Below, piece after piece: positions 11,917 to 58,255 of a DNA stretch of 64,000 nt (the stretch's first letter is position 1; every line of letters starts with the position of its first letter). Both the position numbers and the translations under genes were made by a program. The stretch comes from Candidatus Scatomonas merdigallinarum (GTDB taxonomy: Bacteria; Bacillota; Clostridia; Lachnospirales; Lachnospiraceae). A model generated the notes under the pieces. The model made no database searches and had not been told where the DNA came from. It saw nothing but the letters and a program-made list of their open reading frames with translations. The stretch is from the NCBI GenBank assembly GCA_018716305.1, contig DVKB01000016.1, forward strand, positions 937 to 64,936, given 5' to 3'.

Positions 11917-11949
11917 GATCTTCTTCTCCTTTTTCACATATTTGGGGAA

Positions 11950-12182
11950 CAAAAATCCCTTACGGCATTTCTGCCATAAGGGACGATTCTCTTCTGAGTC
12001 CGCGGTTCCACCCTGCTTGCCCCGGGCGCTGCCCCGGGACCTCTTCATTCTGACGGTAACGGAGTCGCCGGGCCGGATTGGGGCCGCTCGGAGGTGGTCT
12101 TCAGCCGCCATCCGCCGGGATGCTCGCACCCTGCCATCCCTCTCTTCAGACTTCCCGCAGCCTACTCTTCTCTTCTTCGCTT
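11950..12182 (-). ncRNA. T-box riboswitch, Thr specifier ACC
   Basis: Stem I with AGAGA and GCTGAAG-ACC (12098-12096), T-box GGGTGGAACCGCG (12013-12001), terminator tcccttatggca/tgccgtaaggga plus T run. Confidence 0.95.
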
Positions 12183-20354: not shown

Positions 20355-20371
20355 GCTTTGCTCTTCTCCTG

Positions 20372-22929: not shown

Positions 22930-22960
22930 CGCCGATTTCCCGTTCTCTGTTATTTTTCTC

Positions 22961-22989
22961 ATTATATACAATATTCTTTCTACTTTCAA
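22961..22989 (-). promoter_or_regulatory. sigmaA promoter of the kinase-SBP-regulator operon
   Basis: TTGAAA (22989-22984), 17 nt, TATAAT (22966-22961). Confidence 0.7.
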
Positions 22990-23094: not shown

Positions 23095-24000
23095 ATGGAT
23101 ATCAATTATGAATTATATAAGGTTTTTTACCATGTGGCCTCTTCCTTAAGCTTTTCCGAGGCCTCCAAACAGCTTTTTATCTCTCAGTCAGCGGTAAGCC
23201 AGTCCATCAAAGTTCTGGAAAAAAAGCTGGGCATCACCCTCTTTATCCGCAGCACCAAACGGGTGCAGCTGACCCCCGAAGGGGAAATCCTCTTCCGCTA
23301 CGTGGAGCCGGCGGTAAACCTGATCCAGCGGGGGGAGGCTCAGATCATGGAGTCCAGCGCCCTGGGGGGCGGCCAAATCCGTATCGGAGCCAGCGACACC
23401 ATCTGCCGCTATTTCCTGGTACCCTATCTGAACCGGTTTCACCGGGAGCACGCCGGGGTTCACATTAAGGTCACCAATCAGACCTCTACCCGCTGCGTGG
23501 ATCTGCTGGAATCCGGCCAGGTGGATCTCATTGTCACCAACTATCCCAATTCCCGGCTTACGGACCGGACGGCAGCCATTCCCATCCACACCTTTCAGGA
23601 TGTATTTATTGCCAGCCGGGAGCACTATCCGGAATTGATGGATAAAACCCTCACCCTGAAAGAACTGCTGCGGCACCCCATTCTCATGCTGGACCGAAAA
23701 AGCACTACCAGCGAATTTCTCCACCAGCTGTTTCAGCAGCACCAACTGGATCTGGTACCGGAGATCGAGCTGGGCAGCAATGATCTGCTGGTGGATCTGG
23801 CCAGCATCGGCCTTGGCATAGCCTTCGTGCCGGATTACTGCCTGACCCGGGCCTCCAGCCTGTTCAAGGTGCGGATCACCGAGGAACTGCCTGCCAGGCA
23901 GCTGGTCATCGCCCACAACGCCCAGCTGCCGGTACCCCAGGCAGCCCGGGCCTTTATCCGTTTTTTTACAGACGCCGCCGGGACAGGGATTCATTCCTGA
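23095..24000 (+). CDS. LysR-family transcriptional regulator
   Basis: SFSEASKQLFISQSAVSQSIKVLEKKLG.LF.RSTKRVQLTPEG HTH and a LysR substrate domain. Confidence 0.95.
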   Translation: MDINYELYKVFYHVASSLSFSEASKQLFISQSAVSQSIKVLEKKLGITLFIRSTKRVQLTPEGEILFRYVEPAVNLIQRGEAQIMESSALGGGQIRIGASDTICRYFLVPYLNRFHREHAGVHIKVTNQTSTRCVDLLESGQVDLIVTNYPNSRLTDRTAAIPIHTFQDVFIASREHYPELMDKTLTLKELLRHPILMLDRKSTTSEFLHQLFQQHQLDLVPEIELGSNDLLVDLASIGLGIAFVPDYCLTRASSLFKVRITEELPARQLVIAHNAQLPVPQAARAFIRFFTDAAGTGIHS

Positions 24001-26351
24001 GCCCGATCCCAGAATTCCCGCAGAATGTCCGGCAGCTCTCTCAGAGTAACGACCGCCGCGTCGGACCACTCCCTGGGAAACAGCGCCCGGTATTCCCGGC
24101 TGCAGAATCGGTCGTCCAGCAGCGCAATGACGCCCCGGTCCTCCGTGGTGCGGATCACCCGCCCGGCGGACTGGAGAACTTTGTTCATTCCGGGGAAGCG
24201 GTAGGCATAGTCAAAGCCGTTTTCCCCCTTCTCCTCATAAAATCTCCGCAGAAGCTCTCTCTCATCGCTGATCTGGGGAAGACCGGTGCCTGCCACCAGG
24301 GCGCCGATGAGTTTCTCTCCGGAAAGGTCGATGCCCTCCGCAAAGATTCCTCCCATGACGCAGAAGCCGATCAGCGTCTCCCCTGTATTCTCCCGGAAAG
24401 CCTGAAGAAATTCTTCCCGCTCCCGCTCCTGCATGGAAGGGGTCTGACAGAGGCAGTTCTCCCCTCCGTATTCCCTCCGGTAAGTGTCATAGACCTCTTC
24501 CAGCATTAAATAGGAAGGAAAGAATACCATGTAATTTCCCTGCCTGGCCCGCACGAACGCATGGATATATTCCGCCATCCGCCGGTACTCCTCCGGACCC
24601 CGGCGCTTGTAGCGGCTGCTGACATCCCGTCCGATGAGCAGCCGGCGCTTCCCGGGATCAAAAGGCGAGGGAATATAGACCGCGTAATCCTCCTCCCCCC
24701 TGCCGCTGAGAAGGGTTTTATAATAGGTTACCGGCAGCAGAGTGGCGGAAAAGAACACGGCGCCGCGGCCTTTGTCCAGACAGTTCTGAAGGTTCGCGGC
24801 CGGGTTTACGCAGCAGAGCTTCAGGCAGAAACGTCCGTCCTCCCCATGGCGCCCGTAGATCAGATAATTGCTGTCCACCAGATCATAAATAGAAACGAAG
24901 GCCCGCACGCGAAAATAAAACTCCAAAACTTCCTTCCTCAGAGGACCTTCCTCCAGATCTTGAAGAAATTCCTCCAGCTCTCCCAGAAGTCCCGCGGCCA
25001 GCATAGCGAAGGCGCCCACGGATTCAAATCTCTGAATCCTGTCACATTCCCTCTTATAGAGCAGCAGCTGGTGATTGCACCGCTCCAGGGCCCGCTCCAG
25101 CTTTTTGCTGTAAACCCGGATTTTTTTCTTCATTTCCAGAAAATCCTCCTTGCAGACCTCCGCGCTGTACATCTCCCGTCCCCGCTCCACCAGGTTATGG
25201 GCCTCATCGATGAGAAAGATAAAATCCTCCTTCCGGATGCCCTCCCCGAAAAAGCGGCGCAGCTTCACATCCGGATCAAAAACATAATTATAGTCGCAGA
25301 TAATAGCGTCCATCCAGGACGCCAGCTCCAATTCCAGTTCATAGGGACAGACCTGCCGCTTCTCACTCTGAGCCAGGATATCCTCCCGCTGATACCGGCT
25401 CTGTCCGGTGAGAATTTCAAATACCGCCTGATTGATCCGGTCGTAGTGCCCCCGGGCTCTGGGACAGGCGGCGGGACTGCAGTCCGGCTCTTCCAGCACG
25501 CACATCTTTTCTTTTGCGGTAATGGTCAGGACTTTAAACGCCAGGCCGCGGTCCTTCAGAAGGGAAAAAGCCTCCTCCGCCACCGTCCTGGTAATGGTCT
25601 TGGCTGTCAGATAGAAGATCCTGCTTCCCAGGCCTTCCCCGCAGGCCCGCACTGCCGGGAACACGGTGGACATGGTTTTCCCCACTCCGGTGGGAGCCTG
25701 AACGAACAGCTGCTTCCGCCGGAGAATGCTCCTGTAAACCGCGGCGACCAGGTCCCGCTGGCCGGGACGGTAGGGGAAGGGAAACTCCAGCCCTTTCATG
25801 GAGGCATCCCGCTTCTGCTCCCACTGCCACTGGGCCTCCGCCCAATTCCGGTACTGATCCAGAAGCTCCGAAAACCACAGATCCAGTTCCTCCAGAGTAT
25901 ACGTTTCCCGGAATCTCAGGATCTCCTCTGTCTCTATCTGGCAGTAAGTCAGCTGCACGCCGATTTTTTCAAATTTCCGTTCCAGACCGTAGATATACGC
26001 ATAACACTTTGCCTGGGCCAGGTGCAGGGGCAGGGGTTCCTCCAGCCGTTCCAGATTCTGGAAGATGCCTTTGATCTCATCGACGGCCGTCCCCTGCTGG
26101 TCCGTAAAAATCCCGTCCGCCCGGCCTTCCACAGAAAGGACAAAATGCTCGTACTCTTTTTCAAACCGCAGAGGCACCTCGGCCTGATACGCCCCGCCCA
26201 TGCTCTTCTGAATTTTCCGGTGGAGCCGGCTGCCCATCTGCATGGCCTCCCGCTCCGCGAAACCGCCCCTGCGGTTGTCCAGATCGCCACTGCGAAGCAA
26301 AAACTCCACCAGACCGCGGACGGAAATGCGGATTTTCTTTTTTATCTCCAT
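23991..26351 (-). CDS. DinG/Rad3(XPD)-like Fe-S DNA helicase with N-terminal PD-(D/E)XK nuclease domain
   Basis: GSRLH..EGRADG..DEIKG..QAKCY nuclease motifs; APTGVGKT, Fe-S Cys (CVLEEPDCSPAAC), DEAH, QSAGRVIR; RBS aaggagg before ATG 26351. Confidence 0.9.
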   Translation of the reverse strand: MEIKKKIRISVRGLVEFLLRSGDLDNRRGGFAEREAMQMGSRLHRKIQKSMGGAYQAEVPLRFEKEYEHFVLSVEGRADGIFTDQQGTAVDEIKGIFQNLERLEEPLPLHLAQAKCYAYIYGLERKFEKIGVQLTYCQIETEEILRFRETYTLEELDLWFSELLDQYRNWAEAQWQWEQKRDASMKGLEFPFPYRPGQRDLVAAVYRSILRRKQLFVQAPTGVGKTMSTVFPAVRACGEGLGSRIFYLTAKTITRTVAEEAFSLLKDRGLAFKVLTITAKEKMCVLEEPDCSPAACPRARGHYDRINQAVFEILTGQSRYQREDILAQSEKRQVCPYELELELASWMDAIICDYNYVFDPDVKLRRFFGEGIRKEDFIFLIDEAHNLVERGREMYSAEVCKEDFLEMKKKIRVYSKKLERALERCNHQLLLYKRECDRIQRFESVGAFAMLAAGLLGELEEFLQDLEEGPLRKEVLEFYFRVRAFVSIYDLVDSNYLIYGRHGEDGRFCLKLCCVNPAANLQNCLDKGRGAVFFSATLLPVTYYKTLLSGRGEEDYAVYIPSPFDPGKRRLLIGRDVSSRYKRRGPEEYRRMAEYIHAFVRARQGNYMVFFPSYLMLEEVYDTYRREYGGENCLCQTPSMQEREREEFLQAFRENTGETLIGFCVMGGIFAEGIDLSGEKLIGALVAGTGLPQISDERELLRRFYEEKGENGFDYAYRFPGMNKVLQSAGRVIRTTEDRGVIALLDDRFCSREYRALFPREWSDAAVVTLRELPDILREFWDRAQE

Positions 26352-26494
26352 AGCGGCAGCCTCCTTCCGGAACATGTTTCAATCAGCCGCTTCAATGAGG
26401 AAAGCCGCCCAAAAGCACTGCTGCTCTCAGACGGCTCTCTGTTCTGTATCCAACTTCAGCCTTTACGGCTTTCCCTTCACAGGAATTGTCACTT

Positions 26495-46510: not shown

Positions 46511-46543
46511 AAAACGCACCCTACCCATGGCAGAGTGCGTTTT
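46511..46543. terminator. Hairpin/terminator after the LacI-SBP gene
   Basis: aaaacgcac / gtgcgtttt stem. Confidence 0.6.
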
Positions 46544-46550
46544 CAACGTT

Positions 46551-48599
46551 TTATTTTTCAAACACATAATTGGGATTTTCTTTAAAGGCCTGGGTCAGTT
46601 CCTCCCCGGCTTCCTCTTTGAAGACCTGTTTCCAGGCGCGGAGAAGATTTTCCGGCGTCACCGTAATGGGTTCTACTCCCACAAAGGAGGGCACCTCTTC
46701 TCCCAATACAGATTTTACAGCCGCCAGGGCAATGGCCTGGCCCTGTTCAAAGGGGCACTGGGCGCTGAGGGCTTTGACCATGCCTCCTTTTGCCATGTTC
46801 ATGGCCACGGCGTAATCCAGGTCTCCGGTGGAGATGGCGATATCCGTGCGTCCCAGCTCCGTCAGGGCCTCAATGCTTTCTATGGCCGGACCGTCCCAGG
46901 AAATGTAGAGGGCCTCGATCTCCGGATATCTTTTTATCAGTTCCCGGGTTTTTCTGTAAACCTCTCCCTCATTTTCAAACCGGACTTCTCCGCACAGCCG
47001 CAGATCCGGATATTCTTCCGCAAGGACCTGTTTCGCCGCGTTGTCCCGCTGATTGGTGGCGTAGAAATCCGCGTTGTGCACAATCACGCCGTAGTTTTTC
47101 AGCCCATGCCGGTACATGTACTCCCCCAGCCCGTGCCCCATATTCTGTCCATGGGAGCGCTCGTTGACAGAGACACAGGTGACGTAATCCTCCCGGGAGA
47201 GGCCTTCCGGCACACTGTTGATCAGCACCAGCTTCATGCCGCTTTCCGCGATCTTCCGGAAAGCTTCGGAGGTGCGCTTGTTGTCCGAGGGGATGGCGAT
47301 CATGATATCCGGCTTCAGAAGTGCCAGACTTTCCAGCTGCCTGCACTGCAGCTGGGGATCAAAATGCGCGTCTGTAATGGCGATGACAGAGATCCCCATC
47401 CTGTCAAAAACGTTGCGGATCCCCCTCTGATGAAGTTCCATCCAGGCCTTCCCGGCATAGTGGAAGGAAATGGCCGCTGTCAGCTTTTTCTGCCGGATAA
47501 CGGAAATCTTATCTTCCGGAACGATCAGCTCCTCCATGGCGGCCGCCCGCTCGCCAAAGGGGCCTCTGCCGATCCCCCGGGTGGAATCCCGGATGACCAG
47601 CTTCATGGACAGGGTCTCCGTTTTATAGACCTCTTTGAAGGCCGGCTGGTTGGCCGGTTCCTGACGGGCGATGCGCTTCAGCAGTGTATCCGCCGCCAGC
47701 TCCGCATAGGGCTCCACATCCTGCTCGATGGTGGTGAGGGCCGGCGTGTACAGAGGCGCCCATTCAAAAAAGTCAAAGCAGACCACGGAAATGTCCCCCG
47801 GACATTGAATGTTGTGAGCGCTGATATATTTTAAAAAGGGCGTTACTACCGCGTAATTTGCCAGCAGCACCGCTGTGGGCATATGATCTTTTTCCAGCAG
47901 CCGGTCCATGGCCTCAAAAAAATCCATGTCATTCTGGAGATGGGGATAAATGTACGCCTCCTCGGCCGGGATCCCCGACTCTTCCAGCGCTTTTTTATAG
48001 CCCTCCAGGCGCATGGGCATCCGGTCGCTGCTTCGGCCAAGAAAGGCGATCCGTTCGTGTCCCTTGTTGATCAGGTGCTTGGTCCCTTTGTAGGCCCCCT
48101 CAAAGGTATCAGTGCAGACCGTATCCGCCAGATAGCCTTCCACCTCTCTTCCCAGAATGACCACCGGTACCCGGGCGTCCGCCAGCACATGCTTAATCAG
48201 GAGATCTTTTTCATCAGGAAAAACAATGAGCCCGGCGGCTGCGTTCCCCTGGACCACCGCCTGCAGGAACCCTGCCATCCCATCGATGTCCGCTCCGCAT
48301 TCAATGGTGACCAGCGTGTATTCCGTACTCTTTAGTTTTTCATCTATCTTCCGCTCCACCCGGCGCTGAAAATTGCTCTGCTTGTCCGAGAGCAGCATAA
48401 AGATATATTTTCCGTCTTTTTCAAAGAACGGCGTCATCTTTTTTTTCAATACAAAATTCGGAGGCGTCTCCAGCTCCCGTATGGCCCTCTCAACTTTTTC
48501 CACCTTCTCCGGGCTTACATAACGGGTTTTATTTACTACGTGTGAAACTGTGGAGACGGAAACCCCCGCCATTTTTGCTATGTCATTGATCGTTGCCAT
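46551..48599 (-). CDS. LacI-family regulator fused to a second C-terminal sugar-binding domain (682 aa)
   Basis: MATINDIAKMAGVSVSTVSHV HTH, LacI core (LGR..E..RLEGY, VVCFD, LTTI.Q), then an uninterrupted domain alignable to the SBP at 52383-53576. Confidence 0.88.
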   Translation of the reverse strand: MATINDIAKMAGVSVSTVSHVVNKTRYVSPEKVEKVERAIRELETPPNFVLKKKMTPFFEKDGKYIFMLLSDKQSNFQRRVERKIDEKLKSTEYTLVTIECGADIDGMAGFLQAVVQGNAAAGLIVFPDEKDLLIKHVLADARVPVVILGREVEGYLADTVCTDTFEGAYKGTKHLINKGHERIAFLGRSSDRMPMRLEGYKKALEESGIPAEEAYIYPHLQNDMDFFEAMDRLLEKDHMPTAVLLANYAVVTPFLKYISAHNIQCPGDISVVCFDFFEWAPLYTPALTTIEQDVEPYAELAADTLLKRIARQEPANQPAFKEVYKTETLSMKLVIRDSTRGIGRGPFGERAAAMEELIVPEDKISVIRQKKLTAAISFHYAGKAWMELHQRGIRNVFDRMGISVIAITDAHFDPQLQCRQLESLALLKPDIMIAIPSDNKRTSEAFRKIAESGMKLVLINSVPEGLSREDYVTCVSVNERSHGQNMGHGLGEYMYRHGLKNYGVIVHNADFYATNQRDNAAKQVLAEEYPDLRLCGEVRFENEGEVYRKTRELIKRYPEIEALYISWDGPAIESIEALTELGRTDIAISTGDLDYAVAMNMAKGGMVKALSAQCPFEQGQAIALAAVKSVLGEEVPSFVGVEPITVTPENLLRAWKQVFKEEAGEELTQAFKENPNYVFEK

Positions 48600-48715
48600 T
48601 TTTTCCACCCATCTGTCTGTTCTACTAAACTCCATTATACAGGCCCGGCAAAAAAAAATCAATTTCTCATATTGCCGGACGGGAAAGGGGCCGCATTTCT
48701 GCAGCCCCTGTCTGT

Positions 48716-49891
48716 TTAATCCTCAACCTTTTCCCACTGTTTACTTTCCGCGGATTTTCTCACCGCCTCGCATACCCGTTCTACCCGATAGCCCACCTCA
48801 AAGCAGGTGCTGGGCTGATATCCCTCGGTGATGGCCTTAATAAACTCATACATCTCGATGGTCTTTAATTCCCCATAACCGATGTTCATGCCGGGAATAT
48901 TCCAGGTAACTTCCCCGTGGAAATGGGCGGGGCCTGTATAGATGGTCTTGAAGCCTCTTCTGTCGTCGGGATCATCGGCAAAGCATACCTGCAGTTCATT
49001 TAATCTTTCATAATTAAACGCGATGCTGCCTTTGGTTCCGTGAAGTTCCACTGTAATAAAGTTATTTCTTCCCCAGGCGTTTCTTGTGGCCTCGATGCTT
49101 CCCACCGCGCCGTTTTTAAATTTCACAAGGAAGGAATCCTCGTCATCCACATCCACGGCCTTTCTGGGCGCGTCCGCTCCCAGTTTCACGGTTCCCAGAA
49201 GATCCACGCCGCCTTCCTGCACCGGTCTTTCTTTGATGTAGGTCTTCATCAGGGAAACAACTTCATCGATATCTCCCGCCAGGTACTGGGCAATATCAAT
49301 TACATGAGACGCGATGTCTCCCAGGGCGCCGGCGCCGGCAATATCCTTCTGGAATCTCCAGGAAAGAGGAGAGTCCGGATCCGCGGACCAGCTCTGCAGA
49401 TAGGTACAGCGGATGTTCAGGATCTGCCCGATAGCGCCCTCGTCGATAAATTTTTTGGCCAGATCCAGGGCCGGAACCCTGCGGTACTGGTACGCGTTCA
49501 TGCTGATTACCCCTTTGGCCGCCGCTTCTTTGGCTGCCTCCGCCATCGCCTTGGCGTCTTCCAGGGTGGAGGCGATGGGTTTTTCACAGAGAACGTGTTT
49601 TCCCGCCTTCAGCGCCGCGATGGCAATGGGCGCATGGGCGTTGTTGGGAGTACATACGCTTACCACATCGATCTCCGGATCATTCACGATATCCTGCCAG
49701 TCCGTACAGTATTTTTCAAAGCCAAACCGGTCTTTGGCGTCTCTGGCAATATCCGGATCGATATCACAGATGGTTTTCAGCACAGGCACCGCCGGCGCCG
49801 GCCAGAAGAATTTCGGCATATTCGAGTATGCCACCACATGGGCTTTGCCCATAAACCCTGCTCCTACCAAGCCTACATTTAAAGTTTTCAT
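48716..49891 (-). CDS. Gfo/Idh/MocA oxidoreductase, levoglucosan-dehydrogenase-like (divergent paralog)
   Basis: VGLVGAGFMGKAH, MPKFFWPAP, CEKP, YLQSWSADPDSPLSWRFQK, GALGDIASH, EATRNAWGRNN. Confidence 0.85.
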   Translation of the reverse strand: MKTLNVGLVGAGFMGKAHVVAYSNMPKFFWPAPAVPVLKTICDIDPDIARDAKDRFGFEKYCTDWQDIVNDPEIDVVSVCTPNNAHAPIAIAALKAGKHVLCEKPIASTLEDAKAMAEAAKEAAAKGVISMNAYQYRRVPALDLAKKFIDEGAIGQILNIRCTYLQSWSADPDSPLSWRFQKDIAGAGALGDIASHVIDIAQYLAGDIDEVVSLMKTYIKERPVQEGGVDLLGTVKLGADAPRKAVDVDDEDSFLVKFKNGAVGSIEATRNAWGRNNFITVELHGTKGSIAFNYERLNELQVCFADDPDDRRGFKTIYTGPAHFHGEVTWNIPGMNIGYGELKTIEMYEFIKAITEGYQPSTCFEVGYRVERVCEAVRKSAESKQWEKVED

Positions 49892-49932: not shown

Positions 49933-50895
49933 TCAGTTTTTCTTTTTCCTCTGACTCAGATTGCTGATGGCTACTGCCAGGATAATGATCCCGCCTTTAA
50001 TCATGGTCTGCTGCGCAGAGCTCAGATTTGCCAGGATTACGGCATTGTTCATCATTCCCATGAGAACCGAGCCAAACAAAGCGCCGATCACCGAACCGGT
50101 TCCGCCTGACATAGCGGTTCCGCCCAGTACCACCGCGGCGATCACGGACATTTCATCTCCATCGCCGTAGGAATACCGGCCGGCCTGCATACGGGCCGCG
50201 TACATAATGCCGGCAAAAGCCGCGAAGGCTCCGGACATGGTGAAGGCAATGATCTTTACCTTCTGGGTGTTAATACCGCTGTAGATGGCGGAGTTCTCAT
50301 TTCCTCCTGTGGCAAGCACATGTCTTCCAAAAGCAGCTTTATTGAAAATGAGGATTCCGGCGATATAGAACAGCACCGTCCAGATTACCAGCACCGGGAT
50401 TCCGGCGACATCTCCGATTCCGAAAATATTGCAGAAAAGTTTATTCTCAATGGGAACGGCGGCGGTGTCCGTGATCCACATGGCGGCTCCACGAACCAGT
50501 TCCATGGTTCCCAGTGTGGCCAGGAACGCCGGAAGCTTCAGTTTTGTAACCAGCAGTCCATTGACCAGGCCGACCAAAGCGCCGAATCCCAGGCCTACAA
50601 TCAGGGCCAGGAAAATGTTATTGGTCGCCTGCAGGACCAGGGAGACCAGCATGGCGGTCATGGCGGTGATAGAGCCTACCGTCAGATCGATCTGTCCCGC
50701 TGCCATAACAAACACGCCTGCCACAGACATAACAGAAATCATGGCTGTCTGTCTGAGAATATTGATCAGGTTCCTCGGCTGCAGAAAGCCTTTATTCCCC
50801 AGGATCAGCGCGAACAGGACAAATACCACGGCAAAGATGATATAGACCATATATTTGTCCCACTGTATATTTCTTTTACTTTTGCTGGATTGCAT
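49933..50895 (-). CDS. Monosaccharide ABC permease (RbsC-like)
   Basis: GQIDLTVG, PAFLATLG, EMSVIAAVVLGGT. Confidence 0.92.
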   Translation of the reverse strand: MQSSKSKRNIQWDKYMVYIIFAVVFVLFALILGNKGFLQPRNLINILRQTAMISVMSVAGVFVMAAGQIDLTVGSITAMTAMLVSLVLQATNNIFLALIVGLGFGALVGLVNGLLVTKLKLPAFLATLGTMELVRGAAMWITDTAAVPIENKLFCNIFGIGDVAGIPVLVIWTVLFYIAGILIFNKAAFGRHVLATGGNENSAIYSGINTQKVKIIAFTMSGAFAAFAGIMYAARMQAGRYSYGDGDEMSVIAAVVLGGTAMSGGTGSVIGALFGSVLMGMMNNAVILANLSSAQQTMIKGGIIILAVAISNLSQRKKKN

Positions 50896-52372
50896 ACTGC
50901 AGTACCTCCTCTGTTTCTATGTCTTTTCTGTCGATCTCTCCAGTGATATGTCCGTCAAAGATCGTAATGATCCTGTCGCACACAGCCATCAGTTCCGCCA
51001 GTTCTGAAGAAACAAACAAGACACCCTTCCCCTGATCCGCGTAATCCCGGATCAGAGAAATAATCTCCGCTTTCGCGCCGACATCCACTCCCGCGGTGGG
51101 TTCATCCAGCATCATTACCTCCGGATCCATATTCATCCATTTGGCGATTACGACTTTCTGCTGATTCCCTCCGGAAAGAAGGTTGATTCTTTTATGGATA
51201 TCATCTGTCACAATATTCAGCTTCCGGACATTGTCCTCCACGATCTGGTCGGCCTTTTTTTCATCGATAAAAAAGCCGTGCTTTCTTAACTGTTGTATCT
51301 TGGGAAGAACCGCGTTTTCCTTCACCGAATGGATCAGCACAAGTCCCTGCTTCCTTCGGTCTTCAGGGATCAGGGCAAATCCGCTGCGGATCGCCTCGCC
51401 CGGATTCTTCGCCCTCACAATCTCCCCCTTCAGACGGACGGTCCCGCCTTCCTGGTGCCGGAGTCCGAACAAGGTTTCCAGAATTTCCGTCCTCCCGCTT
51501 CCCATAAGCCCGGCAAAGCCAAGGATCTCTCCTTTTTTCAGGCGGAAAGAAATATCCTTGATCCGGTCGTTGATTTTCAGATGATCCACTTCCAGAAGAT
51601 CCGGGCCGTCTTTGTCGTATGTCCTGGGAACCCAGTCAAACTTTTTCCCGGTGCTTTCACCCATCATATGGGTGATGATCTCTTCCAGCGTAATATCGGC
51701 GATCCGGCCTGTGTGCACGATTTTCCCGTCCCGCAGAATGGAGATCCGGTCCGCGATCTCCATGATTTCATTCATCCGGTGGGATATGTAGATCATGGAA
51801 ACCCCTTTTTTCTGGAGATCCCGCATCATTTTAAACAGGTATTTCGTCTCGGCGTCTGACAGAGAGGCCGTAGGCTCATCCAGCACCAGGATCTTCGCCT
51901 CTTTTTCCATCGCTTTGGCGATCTCCACCATCTGGCTCATTCCCACGCTCAGATCCCCCACTACATCTTTGGGACTCACATCAATGCCCAGTTCGTCCAG
52001 AACCTGCTGGGCTCTCTCCGTCATATACCCTGTTTTCCGAAGTCCTTTTTCCACAACCTCAGAACCCAGAAAAATGTTTTCTTCCACCGTCATGCTCTGA
52101 ACAAGAGATAACTCCTGAAAGATCATTCCGATACCGTTTTTCTTCGCGTCATGGGTATCGTGGATCACCGTTTCCGTTCCGTTGACCAGAATCGTGCCGG
52201 CATCTTTGGTGTACACGCCTGTCATGATCTTCATCAGAGTGGATTTTCCGGCTCCATTGCCGCCCACCAGGGCGTGGATCTCTCCCTTTTCCAGAGAGAA
52301 ATCCACTCCCTTCAGCACCGGTACGCCAAAAGATTTTTCAATCCCTTTCATTTCCAGTACGTATGGATTCAT
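50876..52372 (-). CDS. Monosaccharide ABC ATPase (RbsA-like)
   Basis: GGNGAGKST, LDEPT twice, LSGGNQQK; ATG 52372 after ggagg. Confidence 0.95.
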   Translation of the reverse strand: MNPYVLEMKGIEKSFGVPVLKGVDFSLEKGEIHALVGGNGAGKSTLMKIMTGVYTKDAGTILVNGTETVIHDTHDAKKNGIGMIFQELSLVQSMTVEENIFLGSEVVEKGLRKTGYMTERAQQVLDELGIDVSPKDVVGDLSVGMSQMVEIAKAMEKEAKILVLDEPTASLSDAETKYLFKMMRDLQKKGVSMIYISHRMNEIMEIADRISILRDGKIVHTGRIADITLEEIITHMMGESTGKKFDWVPRTYDKDGPDLLEVDHLKINDRIKDISFRLKKGEILGFAGLMGSGRTEILETLFGLRHQEGGTVRLKGEIVRAKNPGEAIRSGFALIPEDRRKQGLVLIHSVKENAVLPKIQQLRKHGFFIDEKKADQIVEDNVRKLNIVTDDIHKRINLLSGGNQQKVVIAKWMNMDPEVMMLDEPTAGVDVGAKAEIISLIRDYADQGKGVLFVSSELAELMAVCDRIITIFDGHITGEIDRKDIETEEVLQYAIQQK

Positions 52373-52382
52373 TTTATCCTCC

Positions 52383-53576
52383 TTACTCAGCAACTGCCTC
52401 CTTCAGCCAGTCCGGAGCCTCGACATGGTATACGTCCTCGTATGCTTCCAGAACATTGGAACGCTCTACTCTCTTGGCGTCAACGACCACATAGGGCGGA
52501 GCTTCCTTGCCCAGCAGAGAATACGCGGCCAGGGTGGCTTCGGCTACGCCCTGGTCATAGGGCAGCTGCGCTCCCAGTCCCACGACATTTCCCTCGGCAA
52601 TTTCTTTTGCCATATTGTTTCCAAGGTCGATGGTGGTCAGCTTCACGTCATCTCCGGTAAGTCCCGCGGCTCTCACAGAAGACAGAACTCCTTCCATAGG
52701 AATATCCCAGCTGGCGTAAATGCCGTCGATCATGGGATACTGGGTCAGGATCGCATCTCCCTGCTCGGAACATCCGTTCTCATCGGTAAAGCCCTGCTCG
52801 GAAACGATCTCGATGCCGGGATATTTCTCAGCGATGGTATCCTTGAATCCCTGATCCCTCTGGTTGGTTACGAAGTACACGGTGTCATAGTAAACCATGG
52901 CGATCTGGCCTTCGCCTCCAAGGGCCTCGCCCATTAAGTCCGCGGCGATGCAGCCGTTTCCGTAATTATCCGCGGAAACACAGCTTACATAGTCTTCACC
53001 GGCTGTCATGCCTTCCGGCACATTGTCCATGAAGACAAGCTTGATTCCTGCCTCCGTTACGCTCTGGAAAGCATCCGCAGTGGCCGTGGCGTCCGTGGGA
53101 ATGCTGACGATGATATCCGGGTTTTTCGCCATAATGGTCTCGATATCGGATACCTGCTGCTCCGCGGAAAAATCCGCGTCGGTAACAGCCACAACCTCGA
53201 TCCCCAGATCCTCAAAGGTAGCCTGAAGCCCCTCCAGCTGTGAGGAGGCCCAGTCGTTTCCGCCATAGTGAAGGGAAATGGCAGCTGTATATCCGCCGTC
53301 CCGGATCTGCTGTTTTTCTTCTTCGGTCAGCTGGATCTCGGAAGCGGGGGTGGCAGCTTCCCCGTTGGGTCCGGTGGCTCCGCCCTTATTTTCCGTCTCT
53401 GTTCCTGTTTCTGTCTCCGGAGCTTCCCCCTGGGAGCTTCCGCTCTCAACAGACCCGCTCTCAGCGCCCACGGAACTTCCGCCGGGTTCAGTCTCCCCGC
53501 TCTGACCTCCGCAGCCGGCTGTCAAAGACAGCGCCATACCCAAAGCCAACATCACACTGACTGTTTTTCTCTTCAT
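52383..53576 (-). CDS. Sugar-binding lipoprotein of the anhydro-sugar cluster
   Basis: Lipobox LTAGC, Ser/Glu/Gly-rich tether, periplasmic-binding fold (TDADF, VSADNYGNG, LGAQLPYDQG). Confidence 0.92.
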   Translation of the reverse strand: MKRKTVSVMLALGMALSLTAGCGGQSGETEPGGSSVGAESGSVESGSSQGEAPETETGTETENKGGATGPNGEAATPASEIQLTEEEKQQIRDGGYTAAISLHYGGNDWASSQLEGLQATFEDLGIEVVAVTDADFSAEQQVSDIETIMAKNPDIIVSIPTDATATADAFQSVTEAGIKLVFMDNVPEGMTAGEDYVSCVSADNYGNGCIAADLMGEALGGEGQIAMVYYDTVYFVTNQRDQGFKDTIAEKYPGIEIVSEQGFTDENGCSEQGDAILTQYPMIDGIYASWDIPMEGVLSSVRAAGLTGDDVKLTTIDLGNNMAKEIAEGNVVGLGAQLPYDQGVAEATLAAYSLLGKEAPPYVVVDAKRVERSNVLEAYEDVYHVEAPDWLKEAVAE

Positions 53577-53610: not shown

Positions 53611-54429
53611 TTACAGGAGTTTTCCTTTCAAAAAATCATAGGAGGTCTGGCAGGCAAACACCGGATCTCCCGCGTAGCCGTCCACTTCTACCAAATAGTC
53701 TCCCGCATAGCCCTTTTCCTTCAGGAAATCCAATACTCCGTCAATATCCAGACGGCCGGTTCCCAGGGGCGCAAAGCCGTTATCATCCAGATCCTTCAGG
53801 TGAACAAAGGAGATGCGGTCATAATATTTTTTAACAATCGTGAGAGGATCCCCGCCGCCGGCTGCCAGGTGTGCCAGGTCCGGACAGATCTTAATGGATG
53901 TCTCCGCGAACAGCCGGTCCACCTGTTCCGGCGCTTCCGCCATAGAACCCAGATGGGGGTGATAACTGGCCTCAATCCCATATTCCGCGAATACTTTCGC
54001 CGCCATATCCAGGCCTTTGCCCAGCAGGCAGTAGTCCTGATCCTGAATGCCTTTGCCCCGGATCGCTCCGCCGCAGAGCGCGGCGTAGGTAACGCCTACC
54101 GCCTGACCTGCTTTCGCCACCTGCTCCATATGGAACATTTCATCTTCCAGGGCGTCCTGATAAATAAAGTTCGCGCCCACACAGACGCTCATCATCTCAG
54201 CGGAATATTTCTGAAGCATGTCTTTGAGCACGGAAAGGTCGCTGCTGTACTTTGTAAGGTTTCCTTCCAGTACTTCAATGCTTTTGAATCCCACCCCGGT
54301 GATCTTCTTAAGGATTTCTTCATCGTCACCCATGGTAAGATAACGGATATCTTTCACACTGGTGACACCTGCTCCTTCCCCTACAAGAGGGCCGAACCCA
54401 TTGGTCATATAACCAACTCTCATTTTCAT
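53611..54429 (-). CDS. Sugar phosphate isomerase/epimerase TIM barrel (IolE/AP-endonuclease-2 fold; candidate 3-keto-sugar eliminase or hydratase)
   Basis: ASYHPHLG, ICPDLAHL, SFVHLKD, LVEVD metal motifs; ATG 54429 after aggagg. Confidence 0.8.
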   Translation of the reverse strand: MKMRVGYMTNGFGPLVGEGAGVTSVKDIRYLTMGDDEEILKKITGVGFKSIEVLEGNLTKYSSDLSVLKDMLQKYSAEMMSVCVGANFIYQDALEDEMFHMEQVAKAGQAVGVTYAALCGGAIRGKGIQDQDYCLLGKGLDMAAKVFAEYGIEASYHPHLGSMAEAPEQVDRLFAETSIKICPDLAHLAAGGGDPLTIVKKYYDRISFVHLKDLDDNGFAPLGTGRLDIDGVLDFLKEKGYAGDYLVEVDGYAGDPVFACQTSYDFLKGKLL

Positions 54430-54447
54430 GTACCTCCTTTTCTCATA

Positions 54448-54465
54448 AAAATTTGCGCAAATTTT
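54448..54465. promoter_or_regulatory. LacI-type operator 1 (perfect 18-bp palindrome)
   Basis: AAAATTTGCGCAAATTTT, downstream of the leftward promoter TTGACG (54504-54499), 17 nt, TATAGT (54481-54476). Confidence 0.85.
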
Positions 54466-54617
54466 ATTTACGCCCACTATACACCTCTTGTGCTTTTTCG
54501 TCAATCCTTTCTTTCCCATCCCTTGATTTTTGTAAATTTTTCACATTTTTCGCATGCTGATTTTATGCTGTTTGCTTATTGATTTTCTCTCCCGCTTTCG
54601 TCATAATTATTTTTAAG

Positions 54618-54635
54618 AAAATTTGCGCAAATATT
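54618..54635. promoter_or_regulatory. LacI-type operator 2
   Basis: AAAATTTGCGCAAATATT (one mismatch to operator 1), downstream of the rightward promoter TTGATT (54579-54584), 17 nt, CATAAT (54602-54607). Confidence 0.85.
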
Positions 54636-54668
54636 GTTTGTACAAAACCATCCGAAAGGAGTATCCCT

Positions 54669-55583
54669 ATGAAATTAGGTTTTATCAGTTCTATTCTGGA
54701 CACTTCTTCCTTCGAAGAAGTCATCGATACCGCGGCGGCCCTTGGCTACGAATGCGTTGAAGTAGCCTGCTGGCCCAAAGAAAAAGCAGCCCGCCGGTAC
54801 GCCGGCATCACCCACATTGATATAGAAGCCCTTACCGATGAAAAAATCGCTTCTATTCATGAAACCTGTCTCAAAAAAAATGTGGCCATTTCCGCTCTGG
54901 CCTACTATCCCAACACGCTGACCGATGATCTTCCCCAGCGCCAGAAAGCGGTAGATCACCTGAAAGCCATGATCGAGGCAGCGCCCAAGCTGCACGTCGA
55001 CACGGTTACTACCTTTATCGGCCGGGTGCAGAACCTTACCGTAGAAGAAAATCTGGAGATTTTCAAAGAGGTGTGGACTCCCATTATCCGCTTTGCCGAA
55101 GAACACAAGGTAAAAATCGCCATCGAAAACTGTCCCATGCTCTTCGGGCCGGACCAGTGGCCCGGAGGCCAGAACCTGATGACGACTCCCGCCATCTGGC
55201 GCAGGGCATTCCAGATGATCCCCAGCGATTTCTTCGGCCTGAATTACGATCCCTCTCATTTTGTATGGCAGCAGATCGATTACATCAAACCTTTGTATGA
55301 ATTCAAGGACAAAATTTTCCACGTACACTACAAGGACATCAAGGTGTACCCCGACAAGCTGGACGACGTGGGCATCATGGCTTATCCTCTGGATTTTATG
55401 TCCCCGAAGCTTCCGGGACTGGGGGATGTGGACTGGGGAAAATACGTGTCCGCGCTGACAGACATCGGATATGACGGGTACACCTGTATAGAGATCGAGG
55501 ATAAAGCATTTGAGGGCTCCCCGGAAAGGATCCTGGACGCCCTGCGCATTTCCTACCGCTACATGAGGCAATTTGTTATCTGA
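54669..55583 (+). CDS. Sugar phosphate isomerase/epimerase TIM barrel (candidate 3-keto-sugar eliminase or hydratase)
   Basis: IAIENCPM, GLNYDPSHFVW, FHVHYKD, PGLGDVDW, CIEIED; ATG 54669 after aaggag. Confidence 0.85.
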   Translation: MKLGFISSILDTSSFEEVIDTAAALGYECVEVACWPKEKAARRYAGITHIDIEALTDEKIASIHETCLKKNVAISALAYYPNTLTDDLPQRQKAVDHLKAMIEAAPKLHVDTVTTFIGRVQNLTVEENLEIFKEVWTPIIRFAEEHKVKIAIENCPMLFGPDQWPGGQNLMTTPAIWRRAFQMIPSDFFGLNYDPSHFVWQQIDYIKPLYEFKDKIFHVHYKDIKVYPDKLDDVGIMAYPLDFMSPKLPGLGDVDWGKYVSALTDIGYDGYTCIEIEDKAFEGSPERILDALRISYRYMRQFVI

Positions 55584-55606: not shown

Positions 55607-56791
55607 ATGGAAATAAAGAAAATGAACATCGGACTGATCGGGGCCGGTTTTATGGCCAAAGCGCATTCTATCGCTTACGCGGGAATGCCCATGTTTTTCT
55701 GGCCGGCGCCGGCCATTCCGGTCAAAAAAATGATCGTAGATATGAATGAGGCTATCGCCAGAGACGCGAAGGAAAAACTGGCCTTTGAGTCCTATTCTAC
55801 GGACTGGCACGACGTCATCAGCGATCCCTCCATTGATATTGTGGATATCTGCACCCCCAACAACGCTCACGCGGAGATCGCCATTGCCGCGGCAAAAGCC
55901 GGAAAGCATATCATCTGCGAAAAACCTCTGGCCCTTACTTCCGAGGAAGCAAAGCAGATGTACCTGACCGCCAAGGAAAATCACGTAAAGACCATGGTGG
56001 CTTTTAATTACCGCAGAACACCGGCGGTTCAGCTGGCAAAAAAATATATTGACGAAGGAGCCATCGGCGAGATCCTGGATTTCCGGGGCACGTATCTGCA
56101 GGACTGGTCCGCGGATCCCGATTCTCCTCTGTCCTGGCGGTTCCAGAAAGCCATCTGCGGAAGCGGCGCCCTGGGCGACATAGGCACCCATGTAGTAGAT
56201 ATGCTCCGTTTCCTGGTGGGCGACTTTAAACGGGTCAACGCCAGAGCCGCCACCTACATCAAAGAGCGTCCCTGCCAGACTGGTCTTTCCGATTCTCTGG
56301 GAAATGCCCGGGTACAGGAGGGAACTCCCAAAAAGGCCGTAGACGTAGACGACCAGTGCATTTTTATGGTGGAATGCGCCAACGGAGCCTTCGGCAGCAT
56401 CGAGGCCACCCGGAACGCCTGGGGCCGCAACAACTACATCACCTTTGAGATCCACGGAACCAAAGGTTCTCTCTACTTCAATTATGAGCGCCGGGACGAG
56501 CTCCAGGTCTGCTTTGCTGACGACGCTTCTGACCGCCGGGGCTTCCGCACCATTTATACCGGCCCCAACCATCCTTACGGCGAAGGCCTGTGGCCCATCC
56601 CTGCTCTGGGAATCGGATACACCGAGACGAAGATCATCGAATGCTACGATTTCTTCCGGGCCCTCCAGGGCGACGGCGAAGCCTCTCCCAACTTCCGGGA
56701 CGGTTATGCCATTGAGCTGATCTCCGACGCGATCCTGGAATCCGCCAAGACCCAGACCTGGGTGGATGTAAAATCCCCCGTTGAGAAATAA
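55607..56791 (+). CDS. Levoglucosan dehydrogenase-like oxidoreductase (Gfo/Idh/MocA)
   Basis: AHSIAYAGMPMFFWPAP, AFNYRRTPAV.LAKKYI.EGAIG, YLQDWSADP.SPLSWRFQK, NYITFEIHGT, HPYGEGLWPIPALGIGY; these strings match my recollection of characterised LGDH (LgdA). Confidence 0.85.
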   Translation: MEIKKMNIGLIGAGFMAKAHSIAYAGMPMFFWPAPAIPVKKMIVDMNEAIARDAKEKLAFESYSTDWHDVISDPSIDIVDICTPNNAHAEIAIAAAKAGKHIICEKPLALTSEEAKQMYLTAKENHVKTMVAFNYRRTPAVQLAKKYIDEGAIGEILDFRGTYLQDWSADPDSPLSWRFQKAICGSGALGDIGTHVVDMLRFLVGDFKRVNARAATYIKERPCQTGLSDSLGNARVQEGTPKKAVDVDDQCIFMVECANGAFGSIEATRNAWGRNNYITFEIHGTKGSLYFNYERRDELQVCFADDASDRRGFRTIYTGPNHPYGEGLWPIPALGIGYTETKIIECYDFFRALQGDGEASPNFRDGYAIELISDAILESAKTQTWVDVKSPVEK

Positions 56792-56917: not shown

Positions 56918-58255
56918 TCAGCCGATCCCTCCGAAGAAAATTCCCAGAATATACACTCCCAGAGCCACCCCACAGAAAACATACCGGGTCATGGGCTCGA
57001 ACCAGCGGCCCAGGGGACGTTTCCGGCCCTGCTGCACCGCGTCTCTGGCAAATTTCTTTCCGCAGATCCAGAACATGGCGATCCCGGCCAGCAAAGCCCC
57101 TAGGGGGATTACATAAATGGAGATACTGTCCATCCAGGGGCTTAAGATATCCCCCTCCACAAACAGTCCCACTCCGGCAGCCGCAGCCCCCACCAGGGCC
57201 AGGGCCGCTTTTCTGGACCAGCCAAACCGGGACTGCAGTGCCTCCGCCGGACTTTCCAGCAGATTGATCAGAGAAGTCATGCCGGCGAACAGCACCGCTA
57301 TAAAAAACAGCACAGCAAACAGCTGCCCGAAGGGAAGGCTGCGGATCACGGAAGGAATGGTGATGAATAAAAGTCCGGGGCCGGAATTGGGCTCCATGCC
57401 GTAGGCAAACACTGCCGGGATAATCACCAGTCCCGCCAGCAGGGCCGCCAGTGTGTCAAAAATAGCCACATATTTGGCGCTGCTGACTACATCCACGTCC
57501 GACTTCAGGTAGCTTCCGTACACTACGGTTCCGCTGCCCGCCACAGACAGGGAGAAAAACGCCTGTCCCATGGCGTAGACCCAGGTCTGGGGATTTGCCA
57601 TGGCGGACCAGTCGGGTTTAAACAGATAGGCATACCCCGGACCGGAACCCGGAAGCATGGCGATCCGCACTGCCAGAAACAGAAACAGTATATAGAAGGC
57701 CGGCATCATGATCTTGTTGACCTTTTCAATCCCCCGGGCAATACCGAAGGACATAATCACCAACGCCAGGATCAGCCCCACCATATGCCAGGGAATGCTC
57801 CCGAAATTTCCGGAAAGCTCCGCGAATACCCGCGCGGGATCCTCCCGGCTGACGATGCTTCCCGAAATAGAATCCCACAGAAACTTCAAAATCCAGCCGA
57901 TAATGACGCTGTAGCCGATGGCAATACCCAGGGAGCCGATTACCGGAATCAGCCCTACAGCGGTTCCTATCCTGGAATTTTTCTTGTTCAGTTTTCGGTC
58001 AAAGGCCTTCTGAAAAGCCCCCAGAGGCCCGGTGTGCATGGCCCGTCCGAATCCCATCTCGCCGATGACCCCGGTGAATCCGATGAGGGCTACAAAGATC
58101 AGGTAGGGAATCAGAAAGGCGGCCCCTCCGAATTCCCCGATCCGGTAGGGGAACATCCAGATATTGGCCATGCCCACAGAACTCCCGATACAGGAAATCA
58201 CAAAGCCGAATTTATTATTAAATTTATCCTCAGATACCGATTTCACTTTACTCAT
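56918..58255 (-). CDS. Sodium-dependent transporter (NSS/SNF family)
   Basis: GSSVGMANIWMFPY, GGAAFLIPY, GQAFFSLS, GPGLLFITIP. Confidence 0.93.
   Translation of the reverse strand: MSKVKSVSEDKFNNKFGFVISCIGSSVGMANIWMFPYRIGEFGGAAFLIPYLIFVALIGFTGVIGEMGFGRAMHTGPLGAFQKAFDRKLNKKNSRIGTAVGLIPVIGSLGIAIGYSVIIGWILKFLWDSISGSIVSREDPARVFAELSGNFGSIPWHMVGLILALVIMSFGIARGIEKVNKIMMPAFYILFLFLAVRIAMLPGSGPGYAYLFKPDWSAMANPQTWVYAMGQAFFSLSVAGSGTVVYGSYLKSDVDVVSSAKYVAIFDTLAALLAGLVIIPAVFAYGMEPNSGPGLLFITIPSVIRSLPFGQLFAVLFFIAVLFAGMTSLINLLESPAEALQSRFGWSRKAALALVGAAAAGVGLFVEGDILSPWMDSISIYVIPLGALLAGIAMFWICGKKFARDAVQQGRKRPLGRWFEPMTRYVFCGVALGVYILGIFFGGIG

Follow-up and report, generated by a model that had tools for sequence, protein, structure and literature searches.

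Transcriptional regulators of the LacI family are defined as two-domain proteins, having a helix-turn-helix (HTH) DNA-binding domain and one effector-binding domain (PMC4052901). In the published lgd clusters, a 'LacI family regulator' accompanies TIM-barrel enzymes and an ABC importer, and its architecture is not commented on in either description (PMC7676230, PMC10066097). The gene considered here occupies positions 46551 to 48599 of the minus strand in a stretch of 64,000 nucleotides (the window) from contig DVKB01000016.1 of Candidatus Scatomonas merdigallinarum, a member of the Lachnospiraceae. It encodes a LacI-family protein of 682 amino acids (aa), in which the HTH and the core are followed by a third domain, related to ABC-importer solute-binding proteins (SBPs). 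With moderate confidence, it is read as a three-domain LacI-family repressor, where the SBP-derived domain would be the inducer sensor and the LacI core a scaffold. No description of such a three-domain LacI design was found in open-access papers and preprints, an absence that is not proof; the survey of LacI regulons (PMC4052901) does not mention such proteins, and the review on signalling by SBPs (PMC8050422) is silent on cytoplasmic SBP paralogs that are coupled to a transcription factor. The gene and the segments of its product are listed below, where PBP stands for periplasmic binding protein and AF2 for the AlphaFold2 model.

46551..48599, minus strand: regulator gene, 682-aa three-domain LacI-family protein, stop codon at 46551-46553 (open reading frame, Pfam, relatives)
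48462..48599, minus strand: LacI-type HTH DNA-binding domain, residues 1-46 (PF00356)
48432..48461, minus strand: atypical hinge PPNFVLKKKM, residues 47-56 (alignment, LacI mapping, AF2)
47595..48416, minus strand: LacI/GalR-type core with the type I PBP fold, residues 62-335 (PF00532/PF13377, Foldseek)
47544..47594, minus strand: linker VIRDSTRGIGRGPFGER, residues 336-352 (segment conservation)
46572..47543, minus strand: SBP-derived Peripla_BP_4, RbsB-like domain with no signal peptide, residues 353-676 (PF13407, BLASTP, Foldseek)

The initial annotation of the window, made from the sequence, had described a LacI HTH and core followed by about 340 extra residues, and Pfam and BLASTP confirm this order. 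PF00356 matches residues 3-48 (E 3.4e-15, 56 bits against a cut-off of 27) and Peripla_BP_1/3 matches residues 68-340 (PF13377 with E 5e-31, PF00532 with E 2.5e-13), the fusion having both the HTH_LacI and the type I PBP core of the LacI/GalR family. PF13407 then matches residues 376-634 (E 4e-37), covering profile positions 2-257 of 258, and the three-domain product is genuine in that HTH, core and a complete Peripla_BP_4 domain are all recognized. This third domain (residues 376-634) is conserved family-wide, and placing the protein outside the two-domain LacI paradigm was fair against the definition in PMC4052901. The AF2 model, built from a 35-sequence alignment, reaches a pLDDT of 87 and a pTM of 0.72. 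When it is compared with the PDB by Foldseek, PurR, RbsR, CcpA and LacI match the N-terminal half only (E ~1e-23, TMq at most 0.39), and ribose-binding proteins match the C-terminal half (2ioy, TMt 0.89, rmsd 2.4); no PDB entry has the three-domain arrangement or covers more than about half of the model.

The fusion regulator is real, and an artefact joining a LacI gene to a neighbouring SBP gene can be practically discounted. The frame is unbroken across 46551..48662 on the minus strand, with the ATG at 48599 giving 682 aa and the N-terminus MATINDIAK, which is the same start as in the orthologs by alignment. The single product of 682 aa expected by the initial annotation is borne out by this frame and by orthologs of the same length: in the cluster of the regulator at 90% identity, with 84 members, 15 of the 15 listed are 682 aa. 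The identical protein is called on 29 contigs. In 20 independent sequencing runs, mostly chicken-gut metagenomes, all the sampled words (100%) of the junction at 47300-47900 are present. Metagenome-assembled genomes of Candidatus Scatomonas match the window with 94-98% protein identity, the window itself being of chicken-gut origin. The fusion is also found in isolate genomes, namely the complete chromosome of Blautia producta DSM 2950 and the draft genomes of Clostridium magnum DSM 2767 and Enterococcus raffinosus. Full-length homologs with this architecture number more than 100 at identities down to 50%, with about 50 clusters down to ~31%, so that an error of assembly or gene calling is excluded, and the linker is the most conserved part of the protein.

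Regarding its distribution, the family is widespread, its sequences having been deposited in public databases with generic names ('LacI family DNA-binding transcriptional regulator', 'substrate-binding domain-containing protein' and 'ribose transport system substrate-binding protein'). Down to ~50% identity, the 120 best homologs share one Pfam set and have lengths of 670-700 aa throughout; the ~50 clusters of full-length fusions come from an exhaustive search of representatives at 50% identity, and the three domains are still present in more distant proteins, at 27-29% identity. When one genome was scanned for each species, 77 loci were obtained, with the fusion in 74 of them, and the fusion occurs in at least 70 genomes. 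Among the Lachnospiraceae the carriers include Blautia producta, B. hominis, B. schinkii, Robinsoniella and Sellimonas; others are Oscillospiraceae, Clostridium magnum, Neobacillus, Paenibacillus abyssi, several Enterococcus, Anaerovoracaceae and Christensenellaceae, together with metagenome-assembled genomes labelled Fusobacterium and Spirochaetales.

The segments of the protein differ strongly in conservation within this family. The linker (VRxSTxGIGRGPFGE) reaches 89% mean pairwise identity with 65% invariant columns, followed by the HTH with 79% and the Peripla_BP_4 domain with 68%, and among the structured parts the core comes last, at 44% mean identity with 8% invariant columns. The GP.GE.A part of the linker is shared with the SBP clade, at the mature N-terminus, and with free-standing alphaproteobacterial proteins, right at their start, as discussed below. 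Because it is conserved in these secreted SBPs and free-standing proteins, the GPFGE motif belongs to the SBP-type domain; the idea that it is a tethered pseudo-ligand for the LacI core was dropped for the same reason.

The hinge between HTH and core had been noted as atypical, and the alignment of 35 sequences proves this to be a family-wide trait. Mapped by alignment onto Y47, P49, N50, A53 and L56 of LacI, the family form is (L/P)PNF(I/V)xKK, in which P47 and F49 never vary and N48 is kept by 34 of 35 sequences. The position of LacI A53 holds L, V, A or I, and that of Leu56 holds T, S, A, K or N and never Leu; a YxPxxxAxxL-type hinge with the minor-groove Leu lever (LacI L56, PurR L54) is present in none of the 35 fusions. 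The AF2 model places a short hinge helix at residues 48-53, followed by a disordered spacer at 55-57 with a pLDDT below 50.

The origin of the third domain can be traced to the SBP lineage. Residues 341-674 align by BLASTP with residues 64-397 of the lipoprotein encoded at 52383..53576 (35% identity over 337 aa, E 1e-66), and all the motif pairs quoted in the initial annotation lie within this alignment. The domain has no signal peptide, as had been stated: it is internal to the protein, beginning at residue ~341 of a cytoplasmic DNA-binding protein with no Sec/TAT signal or lipobox, whereas the SBP has the lipobox LTAGC. Compared with the SBP clade of such clusters, the C-terminal domain (C-domain) has 36% identity, and compared with Escherichia coli RbsB 18-23%.

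However, the claim that it is a copy of the SBP of its own operon does not hold. Over 49 matched loci, where C-domains have 59% and SBPs 69% mutual identity, a C-domain is as close to the SBP of its own locus (35.8%) as to those of other loci (35.7%), and both groups are monophyletic in a neighbour-joining tree, so that an old duplication, not a copy of its own SBP, is indicated. A recent duplication, or a repeated recruitment of each operon's SBP, is rejected on the same grounds. The two groups diverged in a correlated manner (r = 0.82), and together these comparisons indicate an ancient paralog, co-inherited with the SBP and descending from one old duplication and fusion. As for the proposal that the transporter's receptor was recruited as an inducer sensor, it stands as the best reading in the sense that the nearest relatives of the domain are SBPs and the RbsB-type pocket is kept; the pairing with a like SBP, in turn, is not obligatory, as seen from the loci described further below.

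The assignment of the sensor draws on a comparison of the two pockets. The E. coli RbsB sequence used as reference agrees with 2DRI/1URP along its whole length of 271 residues, except for one. Its ribose contacts, N13, F15, F16, D89, R90, R141, F164, N190, D215 and Q235, were transferred by alignment. The equivalents of F15, R141, F164, N190, D215 and Q235 are W386, R518, F541, W568, D593 and Q614; these 6 of the 10 contact positions do not vary among the 49 C-domains and carry the same residues in the SBP clade, and the position of R90 is Asn in 44 of the 49 C-domains and in all SBPs. Conserved sugar-contact residues thus appear, by alignment, to line an inter-lobe cleft of the RbsB type. In the LacI core, the equivalents of R197 and N246 are kept in 33 and 31 of 35 sequences, respectively; the position of D149 is an invariant Gly, that of D274 holds N, D, G, S, A or H, that of Q291 holds Q, K or R, and that of W220 holds F, Y, H, I or R. 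From these alignments, the core pocket seems to be under relaxed constraint and the constrained cleft to be that of the third domain. Being better conserved than the core, and with an invariant pocket where that of the core is relaxed, the third domain is probably the main sugar sensor.

A true two-input repressor, in which the core cleft and the SBP-like cleft bind different ligands, e.g., a substrate and an intermediate or a catabolite signal, is a less probable alternative, at about one chance in five. The retained R197 and N246 equivalents speak for it, as does the core being a complete and confidently modelled PBP fold, and the three positions at which the C-domain pocket differs from the SBP are compatible with a distinct ligand. 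It is weakened by the low conservation of the core, by the Gly and the six different residues at D149 and D274 among orthologs that regulate the same operon, and by the alphaproteobacterial counterpart, whose partner regulator is a ROK protein with no LacI core. The initial annotation had suggested a possibly two-input protein, which is unsupported: a core pocket that is partly kept and partly variable neither shows nor excludes a second ligand.

The genes and sites that the regulator would control lie directly upstream of it and across a divergent promoter region, as follows.

53611..54429, minus strand: TIM_A, xylose-isomerase-like TIM-barrel protein (IolE/LgdB-like), first gene of the minus-strand operon (orthologs beside the fusion)
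52383..53576, minus strand: lipoprotein SBP of the ABC importer, Peripla_BP_4, lipobox LTAGC (Pfam)
50876..52393, minus strand: ABC transporter ATPase with two ABC domains
49933..50895, minus strand: ABC transporter permease
48716..49891, minus strand: GFO_A, Gfo/Idh/MocA dehydrogenase similar to levoglucosan dehydrogenase (NF052479, PDB 6a3f)
54669..55583, plus strand: TIM_B, second xylose-isomerase-like TIM-barrel protein, first gene of the plus-strand operon
55607..56791, plus strand: GFO_B, levoglucosan dehydrogenase family (NF052479)
54448..54465: operator 1, perfect 18-bp palindrome AAAATTTGCGCAAATTTT, core 54450-54463, downstream of the minus-strand -10 box
54618..54635: operator 2, AAAATTTGCGCAAATATT, one mismatch, core 54620-54633, downstream of the plus-strand -10 box
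54476..54504, minus strand: promoter-like site TTGACG-17-TATAGT of the minus-strand operon (consensus scan only)
54579..54607, plus strand: promoter-like site TTGATT-17-CATAAT of the plus-strand operon (consensus scan only)
48634..48662, minus strand: promoter-like site TTGATT-17-TATAAT before the regulator gene (predicted by consensus scan and sequence reading)
46511..46543, minus strand: hairpin with a T-run right after the regulator stop, a likely intrinsic terminator (read from the sequence)

The minus-strand genes thus run TIM_A, SBP, ABC ATPase, permease, GFO_A and regulator, with TIM_B and GFO_B divergent, and orthologs of these operon genes accompany the fusion in most Bacillota loci, those of the SBP at 55-98% identity in most fusion loci. 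GFO_B exceeds the cut-off of 650 bits for NF052479 (733.6 bits), and GFO_A comes just under it (628 bits) and matches PDB 6a3f with E 1e-155. The two dehydrogenases are paralogs with 58% identity, one per divergent operon; both are kept with the fusion in most Lachnospiraceae loci, suggesting that they probably take different steps or substrates. The starts of the TIM-barrel genes, by the positions of ribosome-binding sites (RBSs) and the starts of orthologs, are 54429 for TIM_A (MKMRVGY, after the RBS AAGGAGG) and 54669 for TIM_B (MKLGFIS). Their longest open reading frames (53611-54519, minus strand, and 54579-55583, plus strand) overrun operators and promoters, and the repeated peptide 'KICANF/KICANI' in these long frames is a translated operator.

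Both operators that had been proposed at 54448 and 54618 exist, and they are the sole motif matches in the window. They lie 170 bp apart from centre to centre, each between a predicted -10 box and the RBS of the first gene, close to both. The exact 14-mer core AATTTGCGCAAATT, with a central CpG, recurs in ~30 distant loci between the orthologous divergent operons; across loci, 185 matches with up to 3 mismatches were found against 56-85 in shuffles. As predicted sites, they agree with the palindromic operators of 14-20 bp, with a central CpG and near the regulated promoter, that are a trait of LacI/GalR regulators, and a conserved operator fits the highly conserved HTH. The regulator very probably represses a divergon of levoglucosan-dehydrogenase type through the two AATTTGCGCAAATT operators. 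In many genomes the same core is also present 80-110 bp upstream of the fusion gene, which suggests autoregulation; in this genome, no operator is found at the gene's own promoter-like site (48634..48662). Between the GFO_A stop codon and this promoter-like site, at 48663-48715 on the minus strand, there is a short GC-rich hairpin GGGGCTGC...GCGGCCCC followed by just three T residues, which may act as a weak terminator partly uncoupling the regulator from the operon.

A second fusion subfamily (subfamily 2), with 42-46% identity in the C-domain, was observed at L062-L064, L066, L067, L069 and L073, with Sellimonas intestinalis (L066:9989-17198) as an example, and both subfamilies are present in Aequitasia and Ohessyouella. 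Its neighbours are a GH32 hydrolase and an ABC system with an unrelated SBP, only ~20% identical to the C-domain, and its operator is the variant AATTTACGTAAATT. Here the pocket core is the same and the three variable positions are changed, and the most distant fusions have different pockets; these changes across subfamilies are compatible with a drifting specificity, without being proof of it.

LacI itself carries a C-terminal tetramerisation segment that follows the core. The third domain could, by analogy, be a non-binding structural or oligomerisation module, bridging operator-bound dimers or stabilising the dimer, with the inducer bound in the core. It is attached at the same topological place as that segment, two operators lie 170 bp apart in the window, and the pocket core persists in subfamily 2 despite the different operon. 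Even so, this possibility is rather unlikely. The operator spacing varies from 171 to 279 bp across genomes without keeping a helical phase, and just one operator is present at several loci, so that operator looping as the reason for the third domain is not supported. A structural role also does not predict the invariance of exactly those RbsB-type cleft positions that are common to the true SBP, and the pocket that is relaxed is that of the core, where the inducer would have to bind.

A further alternative relates the domain to the transporter, where it would dock, e.g., to the ABC ATPase or permease from inside and report on its state, so that repression would follow transport activity and not a free ligand, as in MalK-MalT or Mlc-PtsG. 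The co-inheritance of the fusion with the transporter in most loci, with the correlated divergence noted above, speaks for it. A hint of association with the ATPase may also be seen in P0176, P0184, P0186 and P0194, proteins of ~850 aa with two ABC_tran domains and then Peripla_BP_4, 32-36% identical to the C-domain, which, unless they are merges of gene calls, would place an SBP-like domain in the cytoplasm in yet another way. This alternative is nonetheless very improbable. Six fusion loci (L029, L030, L031, L047, L054 and L056; Oscillospiraceae, Hominenteromicrobium, Emergencia, Catabacter and an unclassified bin) lack an ABC transporter in the flanks that were fetched, which are complete at 10 kb in just two of them, L031 and L054, and all keep the fusion, the operator, TIM_A and GFO_A. 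The fusion with its enzymes in L031 and L054 implies that the third domain does not need the transporter. In addition, subfamily 2 is paired with an unrelated transporter, and the conserved cleft residues argue for the binding of a small molecule. That the SBP-like domain delivers substrate to the permease is implausible given its cytoplasmic location. In one of these loci, from Hominenteromicrobium mulieris (L031:10001-14539), a GH31 gene lies upstream.

A split counterpart of the fusion was found in Alphaproteobacteria, where a free-standing protein of the same SBP lineage, of 332-350 aa and lacking a signal peptide, starts with M(S/A)I(T/A)GLGPHGER, i.e., with the linker motif. This family has more than 1,000 proteins, the named members being alphaproteobacterial (Mesorhizobium, Acidisoma, Chelativorans and Bauldia). 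Three short signal-less matches had been considered as split genes: P0221 belongs to this real free-standing family, and the two others are probably fragments, P0179 starting 99 bp from a contig end and P0167 beginning within the core-to-linker sequence (fusion residues from ~335). In 7 of 7 distinct loci examined (L079-L086), the free-standing gene, here for a product of 332-339 aa, directly follows a gene for a ROK-family regulator, as in Acidisoma cellulosilytica (L080:5425-7999) and Mesorhizobium sp. (L081:5593-8014). The pair is divergent from a cluster with an SBP having a signal peptide, a Gfo/Idh/MocA protein and an ABC importer, with a TIM-barrel gene in front of it in 6 of these loci. 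No description of such a pair of ROK regulator and signal-less SBP was found in the open-access literature, a scope that limits the negative.

The transporter SBPs of Bacillota and Alphaproteobacteria are orthologs with 55% identity, and those of the latter have signal peptides, whereas identity is 30% between the two cytoplasmic clades and 36-37% between these clades and the SBPs. Since each of them is closer to the SBPs, the fusion C-domain and the free-standing clade may have been recruited independently. The pocket core is common to all four groups, i.e., both cytoplasmic and both SBP clades. Such a gene-fusion ('Rosetta stone') relation gives independent comparative support to the view that a cytoplasmic SBP paralog works with the transcription factor of its cluster. 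More tentatively, and short of an even chance in our estimate, these proteins could be a portable cytoplasmic co-sensor of the SBP type that plugs into unrelated regulator families, fused to a LacI protein with a vestigial pocket in Bacillota and separate beside a ROK protein in Alphaproteobacteria, where the liganded and closed module would control DNA binding by docking, much as periplasmic SBPs dock onto transporters, chemoreceptors or kinases.

The mechanism that we infer for the fusion, from repression and ligand binding by the third domain to the nature of the ligand and the route of transmission, would be the following. A dimer would bind the palindrome AATTTGCGCAAATT through the LacI HTH and, with this palindrome directly downstream of the -10 box at each divergent promoter, block the transcription of two TIM-barrel enzymes, two levoglucosan dehydrogenase-like proteins and the ABC importer. 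The C-terminal domain, of the lineage of the importer receptor, would stay in the cytoplasm and bind the imported sugar, or a close derivative of it, in its conserved RbsB-type cleft. The closure induced by the ligand could then be relayed via the near-invariant linker and domain-domain contacts to the LacI core, resulting in the release of DNA, with the core serving mainly as a scaffold for dimerisation and transmission.

Several points weigh against this mechanism. The third domain joins the core at the end farthest from DNA, and the hinge has no Leu lever, so that details of DNA recognition may differ from those of PurR and LacI. The core retains R197 and N246 and may still bind something. 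The pocket of the third domain departs from that of the SBP at three clade-specific positions (K384 where the SBP has N, M387 where it has S/A and T/S/N461 where it has D), and the ligand may therefore not be the transported sugar. The mapping of the pocket is itself an alignment at ~20% identity to RbsB, with contact residues from the 2DRI literature, and subfamily 2 keeps the pocket core though its operon differs (GH32), so that these residues may read a generic sugar ring or serve another conserved role.

If the sensor reading is true, a widespread natural family of a textbook model of allosteric regulation, and a workhorse of synthetic biology, has handed sensing to a second flytrap domain, giving a new allosteric wiring to dissect, with the question of how closure at the far end of the core releases DNA. 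For modular biosensors it would serve as a template from nature, as SBPs cover a very wide range of ligands, and the split ROK version offers an independent handle on the same principle; the portable co-sensor, if true, would mean cytoplasmic SBP-mediated signalling, which is outside current reviews. The locus marks a pathway for levoglucosan-type anhydrosugars or 3-keto-sugars in gut Lachnospiraceae, and the sensor domain could identify its ligand. Ordinary neighbours in the window are a threonyl-tRNA synthetase (9988-12129, minus strand), a DinG/Rad3-type helicase (23991-26375, minus strand) and a symporter of the sodium:neurotransmitter family (56918-58255, minus strand).

Compared with the described lgd cluster (LgdA, LgdB1, LgdB2, LgdC, an ABC importer and a regulator; PMC7676230), the window has a dehydrogenase of the LgdA type in GFO_B, and two conserved xylose-isomerase-like TIM-barrel genes, which may correspond to the TIM-barrel eliminase and hydratase LgdB1/LgdB2. 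A LacI family regulator also belongs to the lgd cluster of Bacillus smithii S-2701M (PMC7676230), an organism with demonstrated growth on levoglucosan. With RbsB-type SBPs, such as that of the lgd cluster, the third domain has in common the fold, 36% identity, the pocket core W, N, R, F, W, D, Q and the GP.GE.A motif; it differs in being cytoplasmic, with no signal peptide or lipobox, fused to a transcription factor and in a clade of its own.

The three-component sensors XylFII-LytS-YesN also use an SBP paralog for signalling and control a sugar operon (PMC8050422), but there the SBP-like protein senses outside the cytoplasm and signals to a membrane histidine kinase, whereas the domain of the fusion is cytoplasmic, and no histidine kinase or response regulator is present at the fusion locus. 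A three-component sensor does lie elsewhere in the window, at 18735-22989 on the minus strand, with a LytS-type histidine kinase (21421-22989), an SBP-like protein (20372-21424) and a REC-AraC response regulator (18735-20354), beside a separate sugar ABC transporter (SBP 16210-17262, ATPase 14537-16063, permeases 12411-14537). A PBP sensor is likewise wired to a DNA-binding domain in single-PBP chimeras (AraR-type proteins with a GntR HTH and a PBP, and E. coli XylR with a PBP and an AraC domain) and in engineered biosensors made of an SBP and a DNA-binding domain (PMC6079105). These have one PBP module, and the fusion has two in tandem, of which the second alone looks constrained. A 360-aa AraR-like chimera, with a GntR-type HTH and a LacI-type PBP core, is encoded at 17651-18733 on the plus strand, being the third wiring of a PBP sensor to transcription in the same window.

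Two PBP-fold modules in series with divided labour are known from eukaryotic ionotropic glutamate receptors, in their amino-terminal and ligand-binding domains. The VFT1-VFT2 pair of BvgS is similar in having two such modules with the labour divided between sensing and assembly or transmission (PMC4352136). Such tandem Venus-flytrap receptors are membrane-bound, have another output and share no homology beyond the fold, so that the likeness is an analogy only. Closer to the fusion, the alphaproteobacterial system has the same type of cluster and the same pocket core, with an SBP paralog coupled to the transcription factor of the cluster; it differs in that the sensor-like protein is a separate polypeptide and its partner is a ROK and not a LacI regulator.

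With the canonical LacI/GalR regulators PurR, RbsR, LacI and CcpA, the protein has in common the HTH and core, a palindromic CpG operator over the promoter and a local sugar operon, and it differs from them in the extra PBP-fold domain of ~340 aa, the lack of the Leu lever and the relaxed core pocket. It is thus a member of the family by its HTH, core and operator, which departs from it in its third domain, its hinge and an apparent transfer of sensing from the core to that domain.

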